The notes under the pieces: model-generated
The model's input: the letters and a program-made list of their open reading frames with translations, nothing else
Told to the model about the DNA's origin: nothing
Database searches by the model: none
Translations under genes and position numbers: made by a program
In this document: piece after piece, positions 1 through 24,185 of the stretch
How positions within the stretch are numbered: the stretch's first letter is position 1
Layout: each line of letters opens with the position of its first letter
Assembly (NCBI RefSeq): GCF_012912105.1
Contig: NZ_QMEA01000013.1
Span: forward strand, 39,894-71,893
DNA from: Brasilonema sp. UFV-L1
GTDB taxonomy: Bacteria; Cyanobacteriota; Cyanobacteriia; Cyanobacteriales; Nostocaceae
Direction of reading: 5' to 3'
DNA: 32,000 nt

Positions 1-1
1 G

Positions 2-508
2 ACTCCTTCAGCCCCGCCTACACCAATCAGCCCTACACCTGAAGTGCGGAAGTTGGAGCAGGAAACTCAACTGACTACTCGGATTGAAACTAGCTCGGAG
101 CGAGTATCCACCAGTAATGCAAATGGAACTCAACTCGTGCAGGAAAGTGTGGAGATAATAGCACAGACTGTTGCAACAGCAACATTCGTCCCCACACCAT
201 CAGACTCCCTTGAATCTAATCCTTTGACCAAAATCCTACTAGCGGTAGTCAGTCAGAAGACGGGTTATCCTGCGGAAATGCTGGAGCTAGACATGGATAT
301 GGAAGCCGATTTGGGGATTGATTCGATTAAACGAGTGGAAATCTTCGGCGCACTCCAGGATCAATTCCCTGATGCGCCCAAAACCAGTACCGAAGAACTC
401 ACAGAACTGCGCACCCTCGGCCAAATTATTAGCTATATGCAACAGCAGGCAAAGGCGGCTGAAAAAAAAAGTTTGGAGATGAGGCAGCCAGTCAGCAGCC
501 GAGCTTAA
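2..508 (+). CDS. PfaA/HglE-type PUFA/heterocyst-glycolipid-synthase-like subunit, C-terminal carrier-protein (ACP) region; 5' end outside the window
   Basis: The frame is open from the window edge. A P/A/T-rich inter-ACP linker (TPSAPPTPISPTPE) is followed by the tandem-ACP-type motif EADLGIDSIKRVEIFGAL (Ser codon 323-325). It ends at TAA 506-508, shortly after the A9 run at 462-470. Confidence 0.85.
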   Translation, partial: TPSAPPTPISPTPEVRKLEQETQLTTRIETSSERVSTSNANGTQLVQESVEIIAQTVATATFVPTPSDSLESNPLTKILLAVVSQKTGYPAEMLELDMDMEADLGIDSIKRVEIFGALQDQFPDAPKTSTEELTELRTLGQIISYMQQQAKAAEKKSLEMRQPVSSRA

Positions 509-552
509 ATCACAATTTAAATCACAATATTCAACGCAGCCTAGTCAGGCTA

Positions 553-1245
553 ATGGTCTTACCTGAACCTGACTATCTAGATTTTTCCTTACCAGAACAT
601 CACATTTGCTTGCTCACTGATGACGGCTCTGTGACTACCACGAAATTAGCACAGTCCCTGACTGCACAAGGATGGAAGATTGTAGTTTTGAGTTTTCCCC
701 AATTCTTGATTGCTGAACAATCTCCTTTACCTGAAGGCATCAGTCGAGTGGTACTTGAAAATCTGAGCGAGGATTGTCTTAAACAACACTTAGCTGGAAT
801 AACGGCAACCTACGGTTCCATTGGCGCTTTTATCCATCTACATCCTTTATTCCCGGTCAGCGAGAACGGTGAAGTCTGTTATCTAGAAGCGGATAAGGCG
901 ATCGTCAAGCAGATCTTTCTCATGGCTAAACATCTCAAACAATCGCTCAACCAAGCATCCTGCCAAGGAAACAGTTGTTTTCTCACCGCTACTCGTCTCG
1001 ATGGAGCATTCGGTTTGCAACAAAACGTAAAATTTAGCGCGATCAGCGCTGGTTTGTTTGGATTGACTAAATCCCTAAACTTTGAATGGAAATCTGTGTT
1101 TTGCCGAGCGCTCGATTTGAGTCCCAATCTCAATGCTGAGCAGTCAGTTCAGGCCATCATTGCCGAACTGCATGACCCGAATCGCAATCACACCGAAGTT
1201 GGGTATAGTTCTCAGGGAAGAACAACCCTTATCAGTGAGCTTTAG
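553..1245 (+). CDS. Structural (pseudo-KR) half of the synthase ketoreductase region; continuation of the upstream subunit in the -1 frame (frame actually open from 463)
   Basis: Motifs typical of the region between the last ACP and the catalytic KR of PfaA-like proteins: LPEPDYLDF, HICLLTDDGSVTTTKLAQSLTAQGWKIVVL, GLTKSLNFEWKSVFCRALDL, EVGYSSQGRTTL. Conserved sequence (NIQRSLVRL) already lies upstream of the ATG at 553. Confidence 0.7.
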   Translation: MVLPEPDYLDFSLPEHHICLLTDDGSVTTTKLAQSLTAQGWKIVVLSFPQFLIAEQSPLPEGISRVVLENLSEDCLKQHLAGITATYGSIGAFIHLHPLFPVSENGEVCYLEADKAIVKQIFLMAKHLKQSLNQASCQGNSCFLTATRLDGAFGLQQNVKFSAISAGLFGLTKSLNFEWKSVFCRALDLSPNLNAEQSVQAIIAELHDPNRNHTEVGYSSQGRTTLISEL

Positions 1246-1460
1246 CTGATCTGAAAATGGGTAAAAGGTTACCAGATTTTTAGGGCAGTGGGCGTAGCCC
1301 AGTTTTTAGGGCGAAGCCCCTCTCTTTTTAAGTAAGTTTGAGATTTTCATCCAACTTTCATAAACGTTACCGTTAGCTTCAAGGCAAGTAAAGTAGCCCA
1401 TAAGCAAGGCTTGCGCCTTAATCATAGAAGTTTGAGCAAAAAACTTAGCACACTTAGGGA

Positions 1461-2258
1461 GTGATTCAATTGACAGCACAGCTAGACGGAAAAGTTGCTT
1501 TGGTGACTGGTGGCGGCTCAGGAATTGGTAGAGCTACGGCACTAGCAATGGCCAGAGAAGGAGCGAAAGTTGTCATTGCCGATGTGGGTATTAAGGGAGG
1601 TGAAGAAACAGTACACCTCATCCAAGAAGCCAACGGTGAGGCAATCTTCGTTCCAACTGATGTCTCTAAGGCAACTGAGGTTAGAACTTTGATCAAGAAA
1701 GTGGTCGCGCTCTATGGCTCGCTCGATTGCGCCATTAACAATGCTGGAATCGACGGAAACACCGCTGCAACGGCTGCCTGCACTGAAGAAAACTGGGATC
1801 GAGTGATCAACATCAACTTAAAAGGTGTGTGGTTGTGTATGAAATACGAGATTCCCGAAATGCGACAGCAAGGTGGTGGCTCCATAATCAACATGGCGTC
1901 GGTAGCTGGTTTAAGAAGCGGATTACAACGTTTTCCTGCCTACACAACAAGTAAGCATGGTGTAGTTGGGTTAACTAAAGCTGCTGCTGTGGAATACGCA
2001 AGAGTAGGTATCCGCGTCAACGCGGTTTGTCCAGGTTGGATCCTAACGCCAATGCTCGCCATCGACGATCAGCTTGAAGCTTGGGTCAAGAGCGTAGTAC
2101 CTGCCGGACGTTTTGGAACTCCGGAAGAGGTTGCCCAAGCAGTAGTCTGGCTTTCCTCGGATGCCGCTTCGTTTGTGACCGGACACACTCTAGTAGTGGA
2201 CGGCGGTTTTATGGTGGGCGCAGGCAGCTACAGTCTGAATTCAGGAATTAATAGTTAA
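1461..2258 (+). CDS. Classical short-chain dehydrogenase/reductase (FabG-like 3-oxoacyl reductase family), free-standing
   Basis: GKVALVTGGGSGIGRA cofactor motif, NNAG, and the catalytic S...YTTSK...PG pattern. GTG start preceded by AGGGA. Hand GC counts on two lines are about 55%, above neighbouring genes. Confidence 0.85.
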   Translation: MIQLTAQLDGKVALVTGGGSGIGRATALAMAREGAKVVIADVGIKGGEETVHLIQEANGEAIFVPTDVSKATEVRTLIKKVVALYGSLDCAINNAGIDGNTAATAACTEENWDRVININLKGVWLCMKYEIPEMRQQGGGSIINMASVAGLRSGLQRFPAYTTSKHGVVGLTKAAAVEYARVGIRVNAVCPGWILTPMLAIDDQLEAWVKSVVPAGRFGTPEEVAQAVVWLSSDAASFVTGHTLVVDGGFMVGAGSYSLNSGINS

Positions 2259-2339
2259 GCTTGCCTCTTTTAAAGAAACCAAAACTTCTTTAGTAATCAA
2301 TTCAAAACTCAAACTTTAAAATTCAAAATTGGGTTCATG

Positions 2340-2607
2340 ATATCGAAAGCTCAAATTAACCGCTCGTAGATGTATCCCCACATCTCCCCAAACATACCCA
2401 ATTTGGGGAGATGCTACGAGCGTGCAGTCTAAGGTCTAAGACCTACGTTGATTGAGTCATGACACTAATAAATGAACGCCAGTTTGTTGCTCTGTCGATT
2501 GTCATTAAGGCACGAATTAATTACATACAGATTCGCGTGTGGCAGTCCTAACAAGCTCTTTCAACTTTGACGAGGCAAACATTACTTAGTAATAAGGCTG
2601 ACAGAAT
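2340..2607 (+). ncRNA. Candidate IscB omega-RNA (guide about 2340-2360, scaffold about 2361-2607); boundaries approximate
   Basis: Lies immediately 5' of iscB in the same orientation. Nested hairpin: CGCTCGTAG(2361-2369)/CTACGAGCG(2414-2422) enclosing CATCTCCCCA(2381-2390)/TGGGGAGATG(2404-2413). Long-range pair GTTGATTGAG(2447-2456)/CTCTTTCAAC(2556-2565). Sequence blocks and compensatory stems are shared with the leader of the second iscB copy. Confidence 0.5.
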
Positions 2608-3879
2608 ATGTCAAATTACGTTTTTCTCATTGACCAAAACAAAGTTCCACTCAATCCAGTACATCCAGCACACGCAAGGAAACTACTAGACTCTGGAAAA
2701 GCAGCCGTCTTTAGGCGTTATCCGTTTGTACTGATTTTGAAGCGACCTATTGAAAATCCCAATGTGTATTCGCTTACGCTCAAAATCGACCCTGGTTCTA
2801 AGTTTACTGGTATTGCTCTGGTGACTAATCAAGGTGATGTTGTTTGGGCAATGGAGCTACAGCATCGAGGTCAACAAATCAAAGATGCCCTAGAACATCG
2901 CCTAGCAATGCGTAGAGGACGCCGGAACCGCAATACACGTTATAGACAAGCAAGATTTCTCAATCGCAAACGTCCAAATAGTTGGTTAGCTCCATCATTG
3001 CGGCATCGTGTTTTAACAGTTGAGACTTGGGTCAAACGTTTGCAAAAGTTTGCTCCTATTGGTTCTTTTGCTCAGGAATTAGTGAAGTTCGATACTCAAG
3101 CTATTCAAAATCCTGAAATATCTGGAACTGAGTACCAGCAAGGAACGTTGCACGGTTATGAGTGTCGTGAGTATTTGTTAGAGAAATGGAATCGGCAGTG
3201 TGCCTATTGTGGTGTTAAAGACGTTTCTCTTGAGATTGAGCATATCCAACCAAAATCAAAAGGTGGGTCTGACAGAATATCTAACCTTTGCTTAGCTTGC
3301 CACAAGTGCAATCAACGCAAAGGAAACAAGGATATTAAGGATTTCTTAAAAGGTAAGTCAGACGTGTTGAACCGAGTATTGAGACAAGCCAAAGCACCAT
3401 TGAAAGATGCAGCATCTGTAAATGCTACCAGATGGGCACTCTTCAGTGCTTTGAAATCTTTCGACTTACCTGTCAGCACTGGGACGGGAGGGCAAACCAA
3501 GTTCAACCGGATTCGTTTTGAATTACCCAAAGCTCATTGGATTGATGCAGCTTGTGTTGGTGTGGTCGGAACCATAAAACTGGTCACCGCCAAAATTCTA
3601 AAGGTAAAAGCAACTGGTTTTGGTGGTAGACAGCGATGTCAGACAAACAAATTTGGCTACCCACAAAAACACCGCCCATTGCGTCCAATACTTGGTTTTT
3701 CAACTGGTGACATTGTTCGGGCTGATGTTCCCAAAGGTAAATATACAGGAACTTTTACCGCCCGAGTTTGCCCAATGTCGCATGGTTACGGAGAGTTTGT
3801 GATCAATAAAAAACGGAGGTCAATCAAATTGGACTACTTAACGCCTGTTCATCGTAAGGATGGTTACGACTATGCATGA
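2608..3879 (+). CDS. iscB: IscB, OMEGA-type RNA-guided nuclease (RRXRR/HNH/split RuvC), copy 1, apparently intact
   Basis: N-terminal PLMP-like domain (MSNYVFLID..PLNPVHPA.ARKLL). RuvC-I KIDPGS (D61). Arg-rich bridge RRGRRNRNTRYRQARFLNRKRP. RuvC-II E in QELVKFD. HNH with CAYC...EIEHIQPKSKGGSDRISNLCLACHKCNQRKG. RuvC-III HWIDAACVG. Confidence 0.85.
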   Translation: MSNYVFLIDQNKVPLNPVHPAHARKLLDSGKAAVFRRYPFVLILKRPIENPNVYSLTLKIDPGSKFTGIALVTNQGDVVWAMELQHRGQQIKDALEHRLAMRRGRRNRNTRYRQARFLNRKRPNSWLAPSLRHRVLTVETWVKRLQKFAPIGSFAQELVKFDTQAIQNPEISGTEYQQGTLHGYECREYLLEKWNRQCAYCGVKDVSLEIEHIQPKSKGGSDRISNLCLACHKCNQRKGNKDIKDFLKGKSDVLNRVLRQAKAPLKDAASVNATRWALFSALKSFDLPVSTGTGGQTKFNRIRFELPKAHWIDAACVGVVGTIKLVTAKILKVKATGFGGRQRCQTNKFGYPQKHRPLRPILGFSTGDIVRADVPKGKYTGTFTARVCPMSHGYGEFVINKKRRSIKLDYLTPVHRKDGYDYA

Positions 3880-5641
3880 ATCTGGACAAAATGACCACAT
3901 ATGTACAGATATATCCAGATATCAAGTGACAATTTCTAACCCATCATCTGTTTTTCTTGTCAGCGGCGGTGCCAAAGGGATTACCGCTCAGTGTGTGATC
4001 AGATTAGCCCAGCGTTATCGATGCAAATGGATCTTGCTGGGACGTTCAGAGAACGCCCCAATTGAGCCAGCTTGGGTCAGGGATTCACTAAGTGAATCCG
4101 AATTAAAAAAACGGATTATGGAAGACCTCCTTGCTCAAGGAGAGAAACCTACACCGATGAAAGTACAAAAAGTGTTTAACACGATTTCATCCCGACGAGA
4201 AATCCAAAAAACGCTCTCTACGCTTGAACAAGTAGGCAGTCAGGCAGAATATCTAAGCGTAGATGTGACCAATCCTGTGACCCTACGGGAGAAGCTTGCT
4301 GTTGCTGTTGAGCGCCTAGGACCGATTACCGGCATCATTCACGGAGCCGGAAATCTCGCGGATAAGTTGATTGAAAAGAAAACAGAACAGGATTTTGAAA
4401 CCGTTTTTGCTGCCAAAGTCAAGGGTTTAGAAAATTTGTTGAGTAGCGTGAGTTTGAGTCAACTCGATTATTTAGTGCTGTTTTCTTCTGTTGCTGGCTT
4501 TTATGGCAATGCTGGTCAGACTGACTACGCGATCGCCAACGAAATCCTCAACAAATCTGCTCATCTCGTTAAGCAGTACCATCCCAACTGCCATGTAGTG
4601 GCAATTAACTGGGGTCCTTGGGACAGTGGTATGGTTACTCCGGAATTAAAGAAGGCATTCGCCCAGCGCAATATTGAAGTGATTCCCATTGAAGTTGGAG
4701 CCCAAATGCTGGTTGAAGAACTGAGTGCTGCCCATCATGAAACAGCGCAAGTGATCATCGGTAGCCCGCTAACTCCACCTGCTGAGGCATTAGACCCCGA
4801 GTTACGTAGCTACCGCATCCGTCGCCGCTTAACCCTAGAAGCTAATCCATTTTTGCAAGATCACGTCATTGGTGGCAATCCAGTTTTGCCTGCCACATGT
4901 GCTGTATCCTGGATTATCAATAGCTGCGAACAGCTCTATCCCGGTTATAAATTTTTCCGTTTAGAAAATTTCCAAGTTTTAAAGGGCATAGTTTTTGACG
5001 GTACCCAGGCAAATGAGTTCATTTTAGATGTGCGAGAAGTAACCAAAACTGATGCAAATGAAGTCACGTTTGAGGTTAGAATATGGAGCGAAAAAGAAAA
5101 AGGTAAAATTCGCTTTCATTACACTGGTTTGGTAGAACTTCGCCAACAAAGCTCTGCTTCACCTGTCTATAATCCAGTCGATAATACTTCAAGCAAGACA
5201 ATTACAGGATTGTCTCTTTATCAAAGTAAAACCCTTTTTCATGGATTAACTTTTCAGGGAATAGAACGAGTTTTGGATATCAATGAAAAATCACTAACGA
5301 TGCAGTGTATTTTGCCAAAAATCGAAAATAAACAACAAGGTCAGTTTCGGTCGCACCCCTTTAATCCCTACACAGCTGACGTTTTAGTTCAAAGCGCCTT
5401 GATTTGGAGTCAACATTTACATCAAGTCGGCTGTTTACCTTCAGAAATTCAGCAAATTACACAGTTTAAAAGTATTCCATTTGACCAACATTTTTGGGCT
5501 ACTTTGGAGATAAAAATCAAGACAGAAACGCAAATTATTTGTGATATCACAACCTACGATAGTCTAGGGGAAATCTATATGCATCTATCAGGTGTTAAGT
5601 TTACTATTAGTAAAAGTTTGAAATTTTTAGAGAAGAAATAA
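3860..5641 (+). CDS. Catalytic ketoreductase + polyketide-type dehydratase (PS-DH) portion of the PfaA/HglE-like subunit, now a separate ORF (start uncertain: ATG 3860 or 3872)
   Basis: SSVFLVSGGAKGITAQCVIRLA NADPH motif. Catalytic region SSVAGFYGNAGQTDYAIAN. DH motif HVIGGNPVLP (His codon 4862-4864). The ORF start overlaps the iscB stop by 20 nt. Confidence 0.8.
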   Translation: MVTTMHESGQNDHICTDISRYQVTISNPSSVFLVSGGAKGITAQCVIRLAQRYRCKWILLGRSENAPIEPAWVRDSLSESELKKRIMEDLLAQGEKPTPMKVQKVFNTISSRREIQKTLSTLEQVGSQAEYLSVDVTNPVTLREKLAVAVERLGPITGIIHGAGNLADKLIEKKTEQDFETVFAAKVKGLENLLSSVSLSQLDYLVLFSSVAGFYGNAGQTDYAIANEILNKSAHLVKQYHPNCHVVAINWGPWDSGMVTPELKKAFAQRNIEVIPIEVGAQMLVEELSAAHHETAQVIIGSPLTPPAEALDPELRSYRIRRRLTLEANPFLQDHVIGGNPVLPATCAVSWIINSCEQLYPGYKFFRLENFQVLKGIVFDGTQANEFILDVREVTKTDANEVTFEVRIWSEKEKGKIRFHYTGLVELRQQSSASPVYNPVDNTSSKTITGLSLYQSKTLFHGLTFQGIERVLDINEKSLTMQCILPKIENKQQGQFRSHPFNPYTADVLVQSALIWSQHLHQVGCLPSEIQQITQFKSIPFDQHFWATLEIKIKTETQIICDITTYDSLGEIYMHLSGVKFTISKSLKFLEKK

Positions 5642-14811: not shown

Positions 14812-16707
14812 ATGAACACACAAGAGTTTTTAGCAAGTCTTACTCAACAGGGTGTCCAATTATCAGCTAATAATGACAAACTAAATATTCGGTCTCCAAA
14901 AGGGGTACTGACACCAGAACTCTCTGCAGAACTGACTGCACGTAAGGAAGAGCTTCTAAGCTTGCTGCACAATATGAAGATGCCAACAACTCCTACTGCT
15001 GTTCCACTGGAACATGCGCTCAGCTTACAAACGATTGGTCGTTTAATTGGAGGGTTTGTTGAGCAATCTGCTTTGGAGTGGAAGCAACCGCTCATTGATC
15101 CTAGAGTGATGGCTCAACAACTCACTGTTACATTTAGACCATTGCCTGATGGGTATAAGAATGAGGAAGTTCTTAAATTTAGAGAAGATTTAGAGAGTAA
15201 ACTGCGTGATTATGGGGTCACTGTCAAACCTTGGGAACGTGCTACAACCGATTTTCGCTTTGAGGTGAACATTCCCATAATAAAGTGGAAAAAAACTATT
15301 AAAACAAGAATAGTCAGCGCTGGAGTCAATGCGGTCATTGATGTTGAAAGACCTTCTTCATTAAAAAGAAAATTAGGGATTTTTATAGCAGAAAGAATAT
15401 ATCAAATATATTCTCAATTAATTGCAAGAGGTCGAAAAATTTCGATTTCAAGAATTGCCATGTTGACCAGTTGGGCTGAAGACCATGCAGCTCAACGCAT
15501 TGAAGACCCTACCAATACTCAAGTCATTCTTCTTAAGGAAATAGATAATCAACTTGCAGACTCTCAATTACCCTATCAAAAGAAAATACAAATAGGGTTA
15601 AACACTCTAACAAGAACATATTCAGAGATTGTTATTGGAGTTTCTAGAGAAAAAATATCGGTATTAAACATGAATCTGTGCGATTCTTTATTCTCTAGAA
15701 AAGAGCTAGATAGTTTTGTACTAAACTCGCTGATTCCAAAAATTTTTGTTCCGATAGCTCCACTACTACTGAACCGATTTGAGTTAGGACAATATGATCC
15801 TCGTCAATCTGACTATGCAAAAAAATTAGTGAACTTGGGTAAAGAACTTGTAGTAACTGGTTTATTTCCTCAGGGTTCAAAGCTTAGTGAAGTTATTCCC
15901 AGGAAATCACAACGAGAAATTGTCAGCATAATGATGGATGGCAGAACAGGCGTCTCTTATGGCTTTGTTGCCTACGCTGAAGCTCCACAATACGTTGGAA
16001 AGCAAGAAGTGACTGAAGATGAGTGGGAAAGCTTATCTCCTGTTCAAGGATTCAATTTTGAGGAAATCCGTCAGAATGCAATAGGAAGATGGTATATAAA
16101 AACTTACTTAGAAGCAGAATATAAGTTTAAGCAAATTCCCGATACCTGGCTTGTTAGCTCTCGTTCAGGATCAAATAAAACAAACTTAAATCTTGAAAGC
16201 GATATTACTAGAATCGGTTTAAAAGGAAAGTTGTATCTGCAATTACCGCAGGGAATTGATTCTAAAGTTGTGGACATCAAACCTTCTTATGATGTCTATG
16301 TGATGATTGCTATTGCTCTGTCTGCCGCTTTGCATACACCTGAGTTAATTAAAAATGGTATGCCAATTGTCCATTTTCACGGATACCCAGCATTTGAGTG
16401 GTTGAAACCAAATGAATACTACGCTGGAGTCAACAATCCTTCGGTACCTTGCGGAACGTATGAATCAGGAGTGTTCAATTTTCTGGGAATTCAAAAACTG
16501 GCAAATGAGTATGGCGATAGCATAGCCCTAGCTAGCTTGATAGAACCGGATCATGGCACAAATGTCATAGCGCCTGATTTAAATTATCTCATCGAAAGAC
16601 TGAAAGCTGGATGTGAAAATGGGCAAATTGAATTAGGTGGAAGGCATTTTATCTCTCTCAAACTCAAGAACTCGGTTGAGGGTGACTGCAAAGTCGCATT
16701 GCCTTAA
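14812..16707 (+). CDS. Protein of unknown function with N-terminal TubC-type beta-hairpin docking domain (about 14812-14976) and about 570-aa unassigned body
   Basis: The N-terminus MNTQEFLASLTQQGVQLSANNDKLNIRSPKGVLTPELSAELTARKEELLSLL matches the NRPS N-terminal docking-domain pattern. The rest shows no motif I can recognise. Long uninterrupted ORF, AT-rich relative to the synthase genes. Confidence 0.7.
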   Translation: MNTQEFLASLTQQGVQLSANNDKLNIRSPKGVLTPELSAELTARKEELLSLLHNMKMPTTPTAVPLEHALSLQTIGRLIGGFVEQSALEWKQPLIDPRVMAQQLTVTFRPLPDGYKNEEVLKFREDLESKLRDYGVTVKPWERATTDFRFEVNIPIIKWKKTIKTRIVSAGVNAVIDVERPSSLKRKLGIFIAERIYQIYSQLIARGRKISISRIAMLTSWAEDHAAQRIEDPTNTQVILLKEIDNQLADSQLPYQKKIQIGLNTLTRTYSEIVIGVSREKISVLNMNLCDSLFSRKELDSFVLNSLIPKIFVPIAPLLLNRFELGQYDPRQSDYAKKLVNLGKELVVTGLFPQGSKLSEVIPRKSQREIVSIMMDGRTGVSYGFVAYAEAPQYVGKQEVTEDEWESLSPVQGFNFEEIRQNAIGRWYIKTYLEAEYKFKQIPDTWLVSSRSGSNKTNLNLESDITRIGLKGKLYLQLPQGIDSKVVDIKPSYDVYVMIAIALSAALHTPELIKNGMPIVHFHGYPAFEWLKPNEYYAGVNNPSVPCGTYESGVFNFLGIQKLANEYGDSIALASLIEPDHGTNVIAPDLNYLIERLKAGCENGQIELGGRHFISLKLKNSVEGDCKVALP

Positions 16708-21430: not shown

Positions 21431-21814
21431 CTAGGTCTGACTAAGCAGGTCATCGTAGCGCCGCACTTCCAACAGTTGGTTTCTATTATCCACAATCACA
21501 ACTGTGGGAGAGTATGTTTTTAACTCTTCCGAAGTGAACTGCCCGTAAGACATTATAATCAAGCGATCGCCTATCATGCCTAGACGTGCTGCAGCCCCAT
21601 TCAGTTCAATTGCTCCTGAATTGGCTACAGCCGAAATCGCATAAGTTATGAAGCGTTCGCCATTGGTAACATTTACTACTTGCACTTGTTCATAGGGTAA
21701 GATACCTGCTTTTTCCAACAAAACTTGGTCTACACTGATACTCCCTACATAGTTAATATTTGCTGCTGTTAGTGTGCAGTTGTGAATTTTTGCCAAAAGA
21801 AGCGTTCGCTGCAT
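21431..21814 (-). CDS. panD: Aspartate 1-decarboxylase (pyruvoyl-dependent) PanD
   Basis: [29 protein letters not shown] (Gly-Ser self-cleavage site), [22 protein letters not shown], 127 aa. Confidence 0.95.
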
Positions 21815-22000: not shown

Positions 22001-23257
22001 TTAAATCTCGGCATAGCTATATCCATCCTTCCGATGCATAGGTTTTACTTCGTGAGGTTTGCAATAGTGACGAACGCCATTGACGCGAATCTCTAAGCGC
22101 TTCTCGTTTTGAACCACAACGCGACCGACAACACCTTGAATTGTTCTACCGATATCGCCAGTTTTCCAAGGAGTGTTATAGGTTTGACGTGGCTTAGAAC
22201 AAGGAAATCCAAATTTGTCCATGCGACAGAGACGACGAGTACCAAATCCAGTTGCTTTCTGACTCAAAATTTTCTGAGTCAGAATCGCTAAAGATTCTGT
22301 TATCCCAACACAAGCAGCATCCAACCAGTGTTCCTTGGCAAGTCCGAAACGAGATCGGTTGTACTTGGTTTGCCCACCCGTCCCGGTTGTGACAGACAAT
22401 TTTGTTGATCTGAGCACCTCAAACAGTTTCCATCGGGTCGAATTGACTGCACTGGCATCCTTTAAGGGTGCTTTCGATTGCTTTAAGATTTTGGCAACTA
22501 AATCTGGCTTTCCCTTTAGAAAACCTTTGAGGTCTTTTGTCCCTTTCTTCTGATTACACTTGTGACAGGCGAGACAAAGATTAGAAACTCGGTTGCTTCC
22601 ACCATTTGCTCTAGCGGTAATATGCTCAATCTGCAAAGGAACATTCTCTTTAGAACAGTAAGTGCACTTGCGCCCCCACTTTTCTAAAAGGTACTGGCGA
22701 ACTTCGTACCCTGCTAATGTTCCTTGCTGATATTCAACTCCAGAGATTTCAGGATTCTCTAACTTCTGCATATCAAACCGAACCAGTTCCATCCGAATCT
22801 CGCCGATGGGTACAAACTTGCAGAGTCGCTTGATCCAAGTTTCAACCGTCAGAACGCGATGCATGAGGGATGGGGCTAACCATCCTTTTGGACGTTTGCG
22901 ATTGAGATATCGCGCTTTGCGATACCGAGTATTACGCGACCGACGGGCACGACGCACGGCACGGCGAGTCTGCAGCGCATCCTTAATTGCTTGTCCGCGA
23001 TGCTCTAACTCCATTCCCCAGATTACTTCGCTTTGGTCGGTTACAAGTGAAATTCCAGTAACCTTGGAACCCGGATCAATCTTAAGGGTAAGCGGATGCA
23101 CCATTGTATTGTCTACCGCTCGATTTAGAATAAGCGTGAACGGGTAATGCCTGAACACCGCAGCTTTTCCCGATTCCATTAGCTTACAAGCTTGTTTTGG
23201 ATGGACTGGGTTTAATTGTGTTTTGTTGGCATCAATCAAAAACACATAATTTGACAT
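22001..23257 (-). CDS. iscB: IscB, OMEGA-type RNA-guided nuclease, copy 2 (divergent paralogue of copy 1), apparently intact
   Basis: Same architecture as copy 1: MSNYVFLIDANK, KIDPGS, RRARRSRNTRYRKARYLNRKRP, MELVRFD, CTYC...QIEHITARANGGSNRVSNLCLACHKCNQKKG, HWLDAACVG. The C-terminal ~90 aa are strongly diverged from copy 1. Confidence 0.85.
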   Translation of the reverse strand: MSNYVFLIDANKTQLNPVHPKQACKLMESGKAAVFRHYPFTLILNRAVDNTMVHPLTLKIDPGSKVTGISLVTDQSEVIWGMELEHRGQAIKDALQTRRAVRRARRSRNTRYRKARYLNRKRPKGWLAPSLMHRVLTVETWIKRLCKFVPIGEIRMELVRFDMQKLENPEISGVEYQQGTLAGYEVRQYLLEKWGRKCTYCSKENVPLQIEHITARANGGSNRVSNLCLACHKCNQKKGTKDLKGFLKGKPDLVAKILKQSKAPLKDASAVNSTRWKLFEVLRSTKLSVTTGTGGQTKYNRSRFGLAKEHWLDAACVGITESLAILTQKILSQKATGFGTRRLCRMDKFGFPCSKPRQTYNTPWKTGDIGRTIQGVVGRVVVQNEKRLEIRVNGVRHYCKPHEVKPMHRKDGYSYAEI

Positions 23258-23510
23258 CTTCTGTCAACCTGATAATCAGTAATGTTTGCTTCAAGAATGT
23301 TGAGAACGCTTGTTCGGCTGAAAGCACTTGACTTATAAACCGTTCAGTCATTCCTTAACTTTCAGCGACAGAGCTACAAACTAGCGAATTTGTAGGTGTC
23401 ATGACGTTCTCAACGGTGGTCTAATCCTGTCTCTGGTGGGTGAATCCATCTGTTTGCACAGATTTAATTAGGTTTGATTCACCCCTCTCCATTGAAGTAC
23501 CTGGGATTCT
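23258..23510 (-). ncRNA. Candidate IscB omega-RNA of copy 2 (scaffold about 23258-23490, guide just upstream on the minus strand); boundaries approximate
   Basis: Minus-strand leader shares these blocks with copy 1: GTCATGACAC, AGTTTGTAGCTCTGTCG, TTAAGG, AACAAGC, GCAAACATTACT, GACAGAAG-ATG. Hairpin GGGTGAATC(23484-23476)/GATTCACCC(23446-23438) sits at the position of the copy 1 hairpin. Perfect long-range pair GTTGAGAACG(23414-23405)/CGTTCTCAAC(23308-23299). Confidence 0.5.
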
Positions 23511-23666: not shown

Positions 23667-24185
23667 TTAGCCTTTTCCAGCACTAGCCTTAATACACTTC
23701 TCTACTAAAGGCAAGACCTGATCAACATCTTGCCACCCAAGAATCTCCGTCACTTTTTTCTCTAAGTTTTTATATGTGCGGAAAAATTCGGCTATTTCTT
23801 CTAGTCGATGTCGTGCAAGGTCTTTCAAGGATTTTACAGAAGCGTAACGTGGGTCTTTGTCAGGAACACAAAGGATTTTTTCATCGCGATCGCCACCGTC
23901 TATCATTTCTAGCATACCAATTGGTCTGGCTGCAATCACGCATCCTGGGAAGGTCGGCTCATCTAAGATGACCATACCATCCAATGGATCGCCGTCATCT
24001 GCCAAAGTGTTGGGTACAAAGCCGTAGTCGTATGGGTATTGTACGGACGAGTAAAGTACTCTGTCTAAGGCAAAAGCTTGTAATTCTTTATCGTATTCGT
24101 ATTTATTCTTACTCCCGCCTGTAATTTCAATCAGAACGTTAATCAGACCTGGTTTAGGTTGGGCAGGAATACGAGATAAGTCCAC
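23667..24185 (-). CDS. ppa: Family I inorganic pyrophosphatase
   Basis: [58 protein letters not shown], 172 aa. Confidence 0.95.

Follow-up and report, generated by a model that had tools for sequence, protein, structure and literature searches.

A 32,000-nucleotide stretch of the genome of the heterocyst-forming cyanobacterium Brasilonema sp. UFV-L1 (contig NZ_QMEA01000013.1, positions 39,894 to 71,893; hereafter the window) opens on the 3' end of an hglE/PfaA-like lipid synthase open reading frame (ORF). On the same strand follow a structural ketoreductase (KR) half, a free-standing short-chain dehydrogenase/reductase (SDR) gene, an omega-RNA scaffold, an iscB gene, and an ORF at 3860-5641 with KR and PS-DH dehydratase domains (Pfam) (Table 1). 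ORF, Pfam, Rfam, and NCBIfam evidence confirmed these features where the original prediction, made from the sequence alone, had put them, including the ORF at 553-1245 and the 20-nucleotide overlap between the end of iscB (stop codon 3877-3879) and the ATG at 3860. That prediction had read positions 1246-3940 as one 2.6-kb insert between the two halves of a single synthase KR domain. We found instead that the inserted DNA covers only ~2360-3939, and that the SDR gene and the stop codon after the structural KR half are native. Very probably, the locus is a cyanobacterial hgl-like/Pfa-type lipid synthase operon of normal layout (hglE-like gene, native SDR gene, hglG-like gene) on which one IscB/omega-RNA insertion is superimposed.

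Table 1. Features of the synthase operon and of its insertion sequence (IS), in window coordinates. L099 and L101 are relatives that lack the insertion.
Feature	Position	Strand	Evidence and remarks
3' end of hglE/PfaA-like synthase ORF (last acyl carrier protein, ACP)	2..508	+	PP-binding 5.8e-10; frame open from base 2, at the left edge of the window; stop 506-508, after A9
A9 tract, ACP-to-KR junction	462..470	+	In-frame homologues have A10 (GAA AAA AAA AAG); KR-structural ORF in -1 frame
Structural (pseudo-)KR half	463..1245	+	Open from 463, first ATG 553, native stop 1243-1245
Native free-standing SDR gene (PRK06172-type)	1461..2258	+	adh_short_C2 9e-70; NCBIfam PRK06172, 344 bits vs cut-off 336
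Stranded native hglG-like start, ATG + codons 2-8 (MISKAQIN)	2337..2359	+	Reads into the IS and stops at TAG 2367-2369; 10-codon peptide
Putative 16-nt omega-RNA guide CGAAAGCTCAAATTAA	2344..2359	+	Flank just outside the IS; guide length assumed
Inserted IscB/omega-RNA element, 1580 bp (CCGCTCG...TTTCTAA)	2360..3939	+	blastn vs L099; ends conserved in six copies
Omega-RNA scaffold (HEARO)	2361..2585	+	Rfam RF02033 at 2379-2585, 87.6 bits vs gathering score 83; 22 nt before the iscB ATG
iscB, 423 aa, intact	2608..3879	+	Pfam RRXRR 4.6e-70, HNH 9.7e-13; NCBIfam guided_IscB 464.7 bits, cut-off 175
Hybrid ORF	3860..5641	+	3860-3939 IS-derived (MVTTMHESGQNDHICTDISRYQVTIS plus two bases of an Asn codon); 3940-5641 native KR(catalytic)-DH from codon 9
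Transposon-adjacent motif (TAM) side, CCCATC, native codons 8/9-10	3940..3945	+	Same CCCATCATCTG at the L099 and L101 empty sites

The ends of the inserted element and its empty site

The closest relative that we found, L099, is a 69-kb metagenome contig with 80-85% nucleotide identity to the window and the same gene order (synthase, KR structural ORF, 265-aa SDR, KR-DH gene, PfaC-like gene with FabA), and it carries no IscB. In blastn alignments, window positions 1455-2361 correspond to L099 8622-9513 and positions 3937-5556 to L099 9509-11128, with an overlap of 5 nucleotides (TAACC). The ends of the element were also apparent from six close IscB copies (88-92% amino acid identity; L082, L083, L084, L090, L094, and L096), which lie at unrelated sites in Brasilonema octagenarum, Mastigocladus, Microcoleus, and metagenomes. 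At the omega-RNA end, the similarity of the copies starts at CCGCTC, 1-2 nucleotides before the first omega-RNA stem, and at the iscB-distal end it stops at ...ATCAAGT(G/T)ACA(A/G)TT(T/C)C(T)TAA; the flanks beyond both ends are unrelated. The trinucleotide CCC stands next to the iscB-distal end in all seven copies, that of the window included.

When the element is taken out, the window is identical to L099 nucleotide for nucleotide at the junction (ATTAA/CCCATCATCTG, the slash marking the point of insertion). The uninterrupted site reads TTCATGATACTCAAAGCTAAAATTAA/CCCATCATCTGTTTTTCTCGTCAGTGG in L099 and ...AAAATTAA/CCCATCATCTGTTTTTCTCGTCAGTGG in a second IS-free relative, L101. Joined to each other, the two window flanks correspond to the uninterrupted sequence of L099 and L101, a scarless empty site with neither terminal inverted repeats nor a target duplication. 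Deletion of the element in silico yields ATG(2337) ATA TCG AAA GCT CAA ATT AAC CCA TCA TCT GTT..., which encodes MISKAQINPSSVFLVSGG. This reconstructed N-terminus can be compared with that of L099, where the junction ATGATACTCAAAGCTAAAATTAA/CCCATCATCTG encodes MILKAKINPSSVF, with that of L101 (MTPKVKINPSSVF), and with the Nostoc consensus MTQTAQLNPSSVF (75 loci listed). The register ATTAA/CCCATC follows from the L099 and L101 sequences. A register in which the element ends at 3942, or in which TAACCC lies wholly outside it, was rejected, as the outcome would be INRSSVF, an early TAA stop, or two residues too many at the N-terminus. Aligned in this way, the sequences place the IS in codon 9 of the predicted hglG-like KR-DH gene, in the orientation of the operon, at ATTAA/CCCATC.

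Two other leads to the ends were discarded. A 7-bp inverted repeat (ATCTGGA/TCCAGAT, 3880-3935) was considered as the IS hairpin of the iscB-distal end, and it is neither conserved in the other copies nor significant. The window also holds a second IscB gene (22001-23257, - strand, 418 aa) with its own HEARO (23279-23482, 88.4 bits), located between panD (21431-21814) and ppa (23667-24185), all in the same orientation. Alignment of the two window copies could not define the ends, because they are only ~70% identical in DNA and alike just over the ORF and the omega-RNA core.

The IscB gene, the omega-RNA, and the class of the element

The only ORF in the element is iscB, so that no xis recombinase is encoded. 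Its product is 100% identical to an IscB protein of Brasilonema sp. UFV-L1, and solved IscB structures in the PDB match it at 1e-30 to 1e-44. In the fold of the omega-RNA (z = -4.3), the 5' stem pairs CGCTCGTAG (2361-2369) with CTACGAGCG (2414-2422), and the DNA of this end of the element can form a hairpin of -21.5 kcal/mol (z = -8.1). The 16-17 nucleotides that precede the scaffold (2344-2360, CGAAAGCUCAAAUUAAC) form no base pairs in this fold, the stem starting at 2361, and the guide-side flanks of the six other copies are mutually unrelated. Since the putative guide is the flank outside the IS, it matches the uninterrupted 5' end of the hglG-like gene. The predicted IscB target would be the uninterrupted allele, in which the guide match is followed by CCCATC.

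These features can be set beside what has been reported for IscB elements, in which the transposon end borders the omega-RNA, itself located upstream of iscB, the guide comes from the flank, and the TAM is at the other end; the elements share the orientation of the upstream host gene, and only ~1.5% of iscB genes lie near tnpA (Meers et al. 2023, 10.1101/2023.03.14.532601). According to the same study, excision of IS200/IS605 elements by TnpA is scarless and IscB cuts the restored site. The window element shares with IscB/OMEGA elements the RRXRR/RuvC plus HNH protein, a HEARO directly upstream with its scaffold at the transposon end, a guide taken from the flank, a conserved motif next to the other end, the lack of tnpA, the orientation of the upstream host gene, and the scarless empty site. 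Judged by its sequence, it is a non-autonomous IscB/omega-RNA element of the IS200/IS605 type. The label non-autonomous follows from the lack of tnpA in the element and in the window, and we infer its mobility and excision; it would be mobilised in trans by a Y1 TnpA encoded elsewhere. Likewise, read-through transcription of the operon would yield the guide-bearing omega-RNA. A 127-aa ORF beside the second IscB, considered as a possible TnpA, proved to be aspartate decarboxylase.

Non-autonomous IscB/omega-RNA (OMEGA) elements of the IS200/IS605 family are reportedly the subject of the work of Altae-Tran and colleagues from 2021. Unlike the characterised Geobacillus element, whose TAM is the AT-rich TTCAT, the window element has CCC(T/A) on its TAM side. 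It differs further in lying inside a coding sequence, to which it offers an in-frame IS-borne start, whether by chance or by selection, and in that its iscB-distal hairpin is not evident; its nuclease activity is predicted.

Two of the related copies have further peculiarities. In L082 (Brasilonema octagenarum; 1189-2000), whose IscB is 91% identical, the guide-side motif CCGCTCCG lies 812 nucleotides before the iscB ATG, compared with ~248 in the other copies, and its omega-RNA region is broken up by unrelated, G+C-rich sequence, possibly a nested insertion by which the guide RNA is disabled. In L096, a fragment matching Cas12f1-like_TNB (the TnpB zinc-ribbon) lies directly after the end of the IscB element (2214-2432), so that in this metagenome contig an element of the IscB type lies beside one of the TnpB type or is nested with it.

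The boundary between the hglE-like and hglG-like genes is native

We surveyed 80 cyanobacterial genomic loci, 77 of which contain both KR halves. In 76 of these 77, the stop codon after the structural half lies at the same place, following ...GR(T/V)TL(I/V)...; in the window, ORF 553-1245 ends there with ...EVGYSSQGRTTLISEL. The catalytic half is likewise a separate gene in 76 of the 77, with the N-terminus M-x7-8-(P/S)SSVF(L/V)VSGG, and the halves are fused into a single ORF in L021 only. ORF 553-1245 has homologues of two kinds, short proteins that stand alone and C-terminal parts of long synthases, and a PDB sequence search with the structural half returned weak SDR matches only (best E = 0.0014). 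On the NCBIfam model of PfaA, TIGR02813, ORF 553-1245 maps to positions 1757-1978 and the KR-DH ORF at 3860-5641 to positions 1995-2578. This mapping and the fused ORF of L021 uphold the earlier view that the two ORFs represent neighbouring portions of one KR region of PfaA. The marine PUFA (polyunsaturated fatty acid) synthase subunit PfaA thus shares its domain order (...ACPn-KR(structural)-KR(catalytic)-DH) with the window; it is one polypeptide, as also in 1 of the 77 cyanobacterial loci, whereas cyanobacterial hgl-type clusters normally use two genes.

The gap between the hglE-like and hglG-like genes ranges from 9 nucleotides to 2.8 kb across the loci. It is empty in most Nostoc loci, and in many hgl islands of Scytonema, Stigonema, Chlorogloeopsis, and Brasilonema it holds a gene for a small CarboxypepD_reg-like membrane protein. 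This gap ORF (150-260 aa; L009, L014, L015, L017, L027, L033, L041, L056, L075, and L079) has the motifs INYLGRVLD..KQAPISGAKV...YTDLEGIY...TIEAKGYKTY...DLGDI.L, then a hydrophobic helix, and corresponds to the 'carboxypeptidase regulatory-like' protein between HglE and HglG (PMC8073705). The gap of L026 contains two other ORFs, of 386 and 463 aa. HglE and HglG have been annotated as separate genes, with an intervening gene in HT-58-2 (PMC8073705), and the split in the window is this published hglE/hglG gene boundary.

The SDR gene belongs to the cluster as well. Together with its spacer, it is collinear with the IS-free L099 at 80.7% nucleotide identity, and an SDR gene whose product is 66% identical lies between the KR halves in Nostoc sp. 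B(2019) (L004) and Nostoc sp. MG11 (L011), neither of which has IscB there. The divergence of the SDR from that of L004 (66% amino acid identity) is on a par with that of the flanking genes (60-65%), as it should be if they were inherited together. The IS-free L101 (JAAUYA010030970.1, reverse strand ~940-1120) retains a ~80-nucleotide remnant of the SDR 3' end between its KR-structural ORF and its KR-DH gene; this remnant suggests that the SDR gene was ancestral in this subclade and was later deleted in L101. Loci of Scytonema and Tolypothrix have a 65-70% identical SDR at the far end of the island. On the strength of these alignments, we regard the SDR as a native accessory gene of the cluster, outside the insert. 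The spacer that precedes it (1246-1460, from the KR-structural stop) is ~146 nucleotides longer than that of L099 and does not align with it. Within it lie two occurrences of TTTTTAGGGC and a small GC hairpin (1289-1301) with T's behind it, and no further copies of the spacer were found elsewhere in the window or in the fetched loci.

Downstream, the PfaC-like ORF (2113 aa, KS-CLF-AT-FabA) and the PfaD-like ORF are intact, and the other cluster ORFs are of full length. The nearest relatives of the cluster are non-heterocystous (L001, Chroococcidiopsidaceae, 69% amino acid identity; L002, Leptolyngbya, 60%), and the Brasilonema angustatum hgl island is only 59% identical to it. From these relatives, the ~59% identity to the B. 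angustatum island, and the FabA-bearing PfaC-like protein, we conclude that the cluster is a second, hgl-like island rather than the primary hgl island. It resembles published hgl and hgl-like islands (PMC8073705; 10.1101/2024.05.17.594646) in that the synthase ends after the structural KR and a separate gene encodes the NADPH-binding KR half plus PS-DH, in its variable hglE/hglG gap (empty, or with a CarboxypepD_reg-like gene or an SDR gene), and in its SDR, a recognised member of heterocyst glycolipid clusters. It differs in having one PfaC-like KS-CLF-AT-FabA protein instead of hglD/hglC, and in the interruption of its hglG-like gene. The last ORF of the cluster (14812-16707, 631 aa) starts with a TubC_N docking domain (2.9e-17), and its other ~575 residues match nothing in Pfam or NCBIfam; docking to the synthase as an uncharacterised tailoring or release enzyme is a possible role of its product.

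A conserved A tract at the ACP-KR junction

ORF 553-1245 looks separate because the window has A9 instead of the conserved A10 between the last ACP and the KR half. We found it to be linked to the ACP ORF upstream of it by a shift into the -1 frame at positions 462-470, which the original prediction had missed. We compared the same site across 78 loci. A10 (GAAAAAAAAAAG = EKKK), with the KR half in frame, is present in 69, and A9 with the -1 frame change in five (the window, L099, L100, L002, and L079). Two loci have A11 with substitutions and remain in frame, L003 has one A too many, and L001 has a tract of A9-equivalent length. The flanks of the tract are the same in Chlorogloeopsis sp. ULAP02, which has A10, as in C. 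fritschii PCC 6912, which has A9. The 10-A homopolymer is conserved at the nucleotide level though the proteins are only ~55-60% identical. Given this conservation and the recurrent ±1 variants, the tract points to one of three causes, namely transcriptional slippage, phase variation, or recurrent homopolymer assembly errors, each a candidate suggested by the alignment.

Consequences for the hglG-like gene

The ATG at 3860 had been taken as the first of the resumed synthase frame. This ATG and the 27 codons from it are IS sequence, and the native start at 2337 had been overlooked. Translation could also begin at two other codons of the IS, ATG 3872 (ATGCATGA, which overlaps the iscB stop) and GTG 3926. 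The native 8-residue N-terminus would be replaced by 27, 23, or 5 IS-encoded residues ahead of the NADPH-binding strand, and the predicted hybrid N-terminal peptides are MVTTMHESGQNDHICTDISR, MHESGQNDHICTDISR, MHESGQ..., and (M)TISNPSSVF. The corresponding stretch of the fused homologue L021 is a linker, which implies that extra residues there should be tolerated. A promoter scan of 1100-4100 found no promoter-like site, and a terminator scan of 2260-3960 found nothing convincing, at chance level.

Gene callers repeatedly predict an ORF that runs from the last iscB codons outward into the flank (window 3860-3945, L082 3265, L086 2929, and L087 1543), and the window and L082 have in common the ATG inside ...GACTATGC..., which lies 7 nucleotides before the stop codon ends.

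Discussion

The original prediction offered three readings of the 2.6-kb region: inactivation, a tolerated split, and an interruption element of a new kind. Its premise, that the synthase gene was split when a single block of SDR, omega-RNA, and IscB entered a KR domain that had been continuous, is favoured by the contiguity of the two ORFs on TIGR02813 and on the fused locus L021. The same stop and restart are, however, found in 76 of 77 loci without any IscB, the ends of the IS map to 2360 and 3939, and the SDR has diverged in step with its neighbours. The prediction itself had named a two-gene split around an SDR gene in IscB-free relatives as the observation that would speak against a single insert, and the syntenic comparison found just this in L099, L004, and L011, with a remnant in L101, so that the single-block idea is refuted on its own terms and we consider it extremely unlikely. 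The lack of HIP1 in positions 1-4528 was borne out, the first site being at 4529, and this lack was rejected as a sign of foreign DNA, since there are 14 sites in the 32 kb and the gap is not significant.

Scarcely more probable is a developmentally regulated element that is excised in heterocysts and uses an RNA-guided nuclease in place of a Xis recombinase. Brasilonema sp. UFV-L1 does form heterocysts, and scarless TnpA excision of IS200/IS605 elements would restore the gene exactly. Heterocyst interruption elements measure several to tens of kilobases, compared with 1.6 kb for the window element. They are known from nifD, fdxN, hupL, and hglE, the last of which the original prediction had correctly named, and all of them carry a serine or tyrosine xis recombinase (Hilton et al., PMC4874684). 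They share with the window element the interruption of a gene in a heterocyst-former and the fact that precise removal would restore the ORF. The window element, in contrast, lacks xis, and its IS family is promiscuous: six close copies lie at unrelated non-heterocyst loci of other cyanobacteria, including the non-heterocystous Microcoleus, and a second, diverged copy lies between panD and ppa in the same window. No evidence was seen for developmental excision. IscB, moreover, cuts the restored site rather than restoring it, and the cluster, with non-heterocystous nearest relatives, has a FabA-type PfaC architecture and not hglD/hglC. We therefore see an ordinary IS here. An assembly artefact, in which an IscB element was mis-joined into the cluster, is suggested by the multi-copy nature of IscB elements, two of which lie in the window. 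It is extremely improbable, since an independent Logan assembly of SRR11615120 (L081, 4 kb) has identical KRs-SDR-IscB-KR junctions, the second window copy is only ~70% identical, and a chimera would not reconstitute a scarless in-frame empty site identical to that of L099.

Several points nevertheless weigh against an IscB/omega-RNA insertion in an otherwise normal operon. The exact point of the cut can be fixed only to within a few nucleotides: the element begins with CC and ends with TAA, and the target has TAA and CC next to these ends, so that the register can shift by up to ~3 nucleotides either way. TAACC is present at both junctions (2357-2361 and 3937-3941) and absent in three of the six other copies. 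Those six have CCCT where the window has CCCA. The last 65 nucleotides of the iscB-distal end showed no significant or conserved DNA hairpin (z = -0.2; other copies +1.3 and -1.8), and no Y1 (HUH) TnpA ORF was found in the element or the 32-kb window. A conspecific empty allele was sought in metagenomes with a 22-mer upstream of the junction, which gave 0 matches, and a degenerate right-flank pattern found only the more distant IS-free relative L101; the empty-site comparators are relatives of only 70-85% identity. Finally, the A9 tract in the upstream hglE-like gene could, taken alone, mean that the whole cluster is decaying. IS-free relatives share A9, so the tract is not evidence of cluster decay here.

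What the insertion does to the hglG-like gene is a closer call, and inactivation and tolerance, the first two of the earlier readings, are both still live, with the IscB insertion in codon 9 of the KR-DH gene, and not a 2.6-kb split of the KR, as the cause. We put the chance that the gene is hypomorphic and still expressed at about even, with a slight preference for this outcome. Somewhat less probable, and still a serious contender, is a null mutation, in which start and translation signals are lost, the hybrid ORF is untranslated or the transcript disrupted, and the cluster is turning into pseudogenes. The native ATG and its eight codons are cut off and now end as a 10-codon peptide, no promoter-like site lies in 1100-4100, and the Shine-Dalgarno sequence is poorly placed for 3860, as AAGGA abuts ATG 3860 and lies 12 nucleotides from ATG 3872. 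The frame change at A9 in the hglE-like gene points the same way, and the product of a second, hgl-like island may be dispensable (10.1101/2024.05.17.594646). On the other side, the remaining cluster ORFs are full length, the hybrid frame is open, A9 is common to the IS-free L099, L100, L002, and L079, and the linker of L021 suggests that extra N-terminal residues should be tolerated. It is improbable, though less so than the developmental element, that the insertion is functionally integrated, with an omega-RNA produced by operon read-through, translation of the hglG-like gene coupled to iscB (ATG 3860/3872), and TnpA excision set against IscB cutting.

With regard to the original prediction, the value of the analysis is mostly corrective, as the split KR of such clusters should not be annotated as damage. 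The window nonetheless offers a clean natural IscB/omega-RNA element inside a coding sequence, with mapped boundaries and natural empty-site comparators, which is useful for TAM and guide inference. It also yields a proposed CCC(T/A) adjacent motif for a widespread cyanobacterial IscB clade, and a guide aimed at the 5' end of the host polyketide synthase gene itself. The A tract is possibly of more lasting interest. With A10 kept in essentially all of the hgl and hgl-like synthases compared, and A9 plus a frame change in several independent genomes, it hints that a large lipid synthase may be subject to transcriptional slippage or phase variation. The locus can also serve to examine whether start codons supplied by an IS rescue the gene that it interrupts. 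Were the insertion functionally integrated, the IscB element would act on the hgl-like lipid pathway of this heterocyst-former as a switch that maintains itself and may be reversible.

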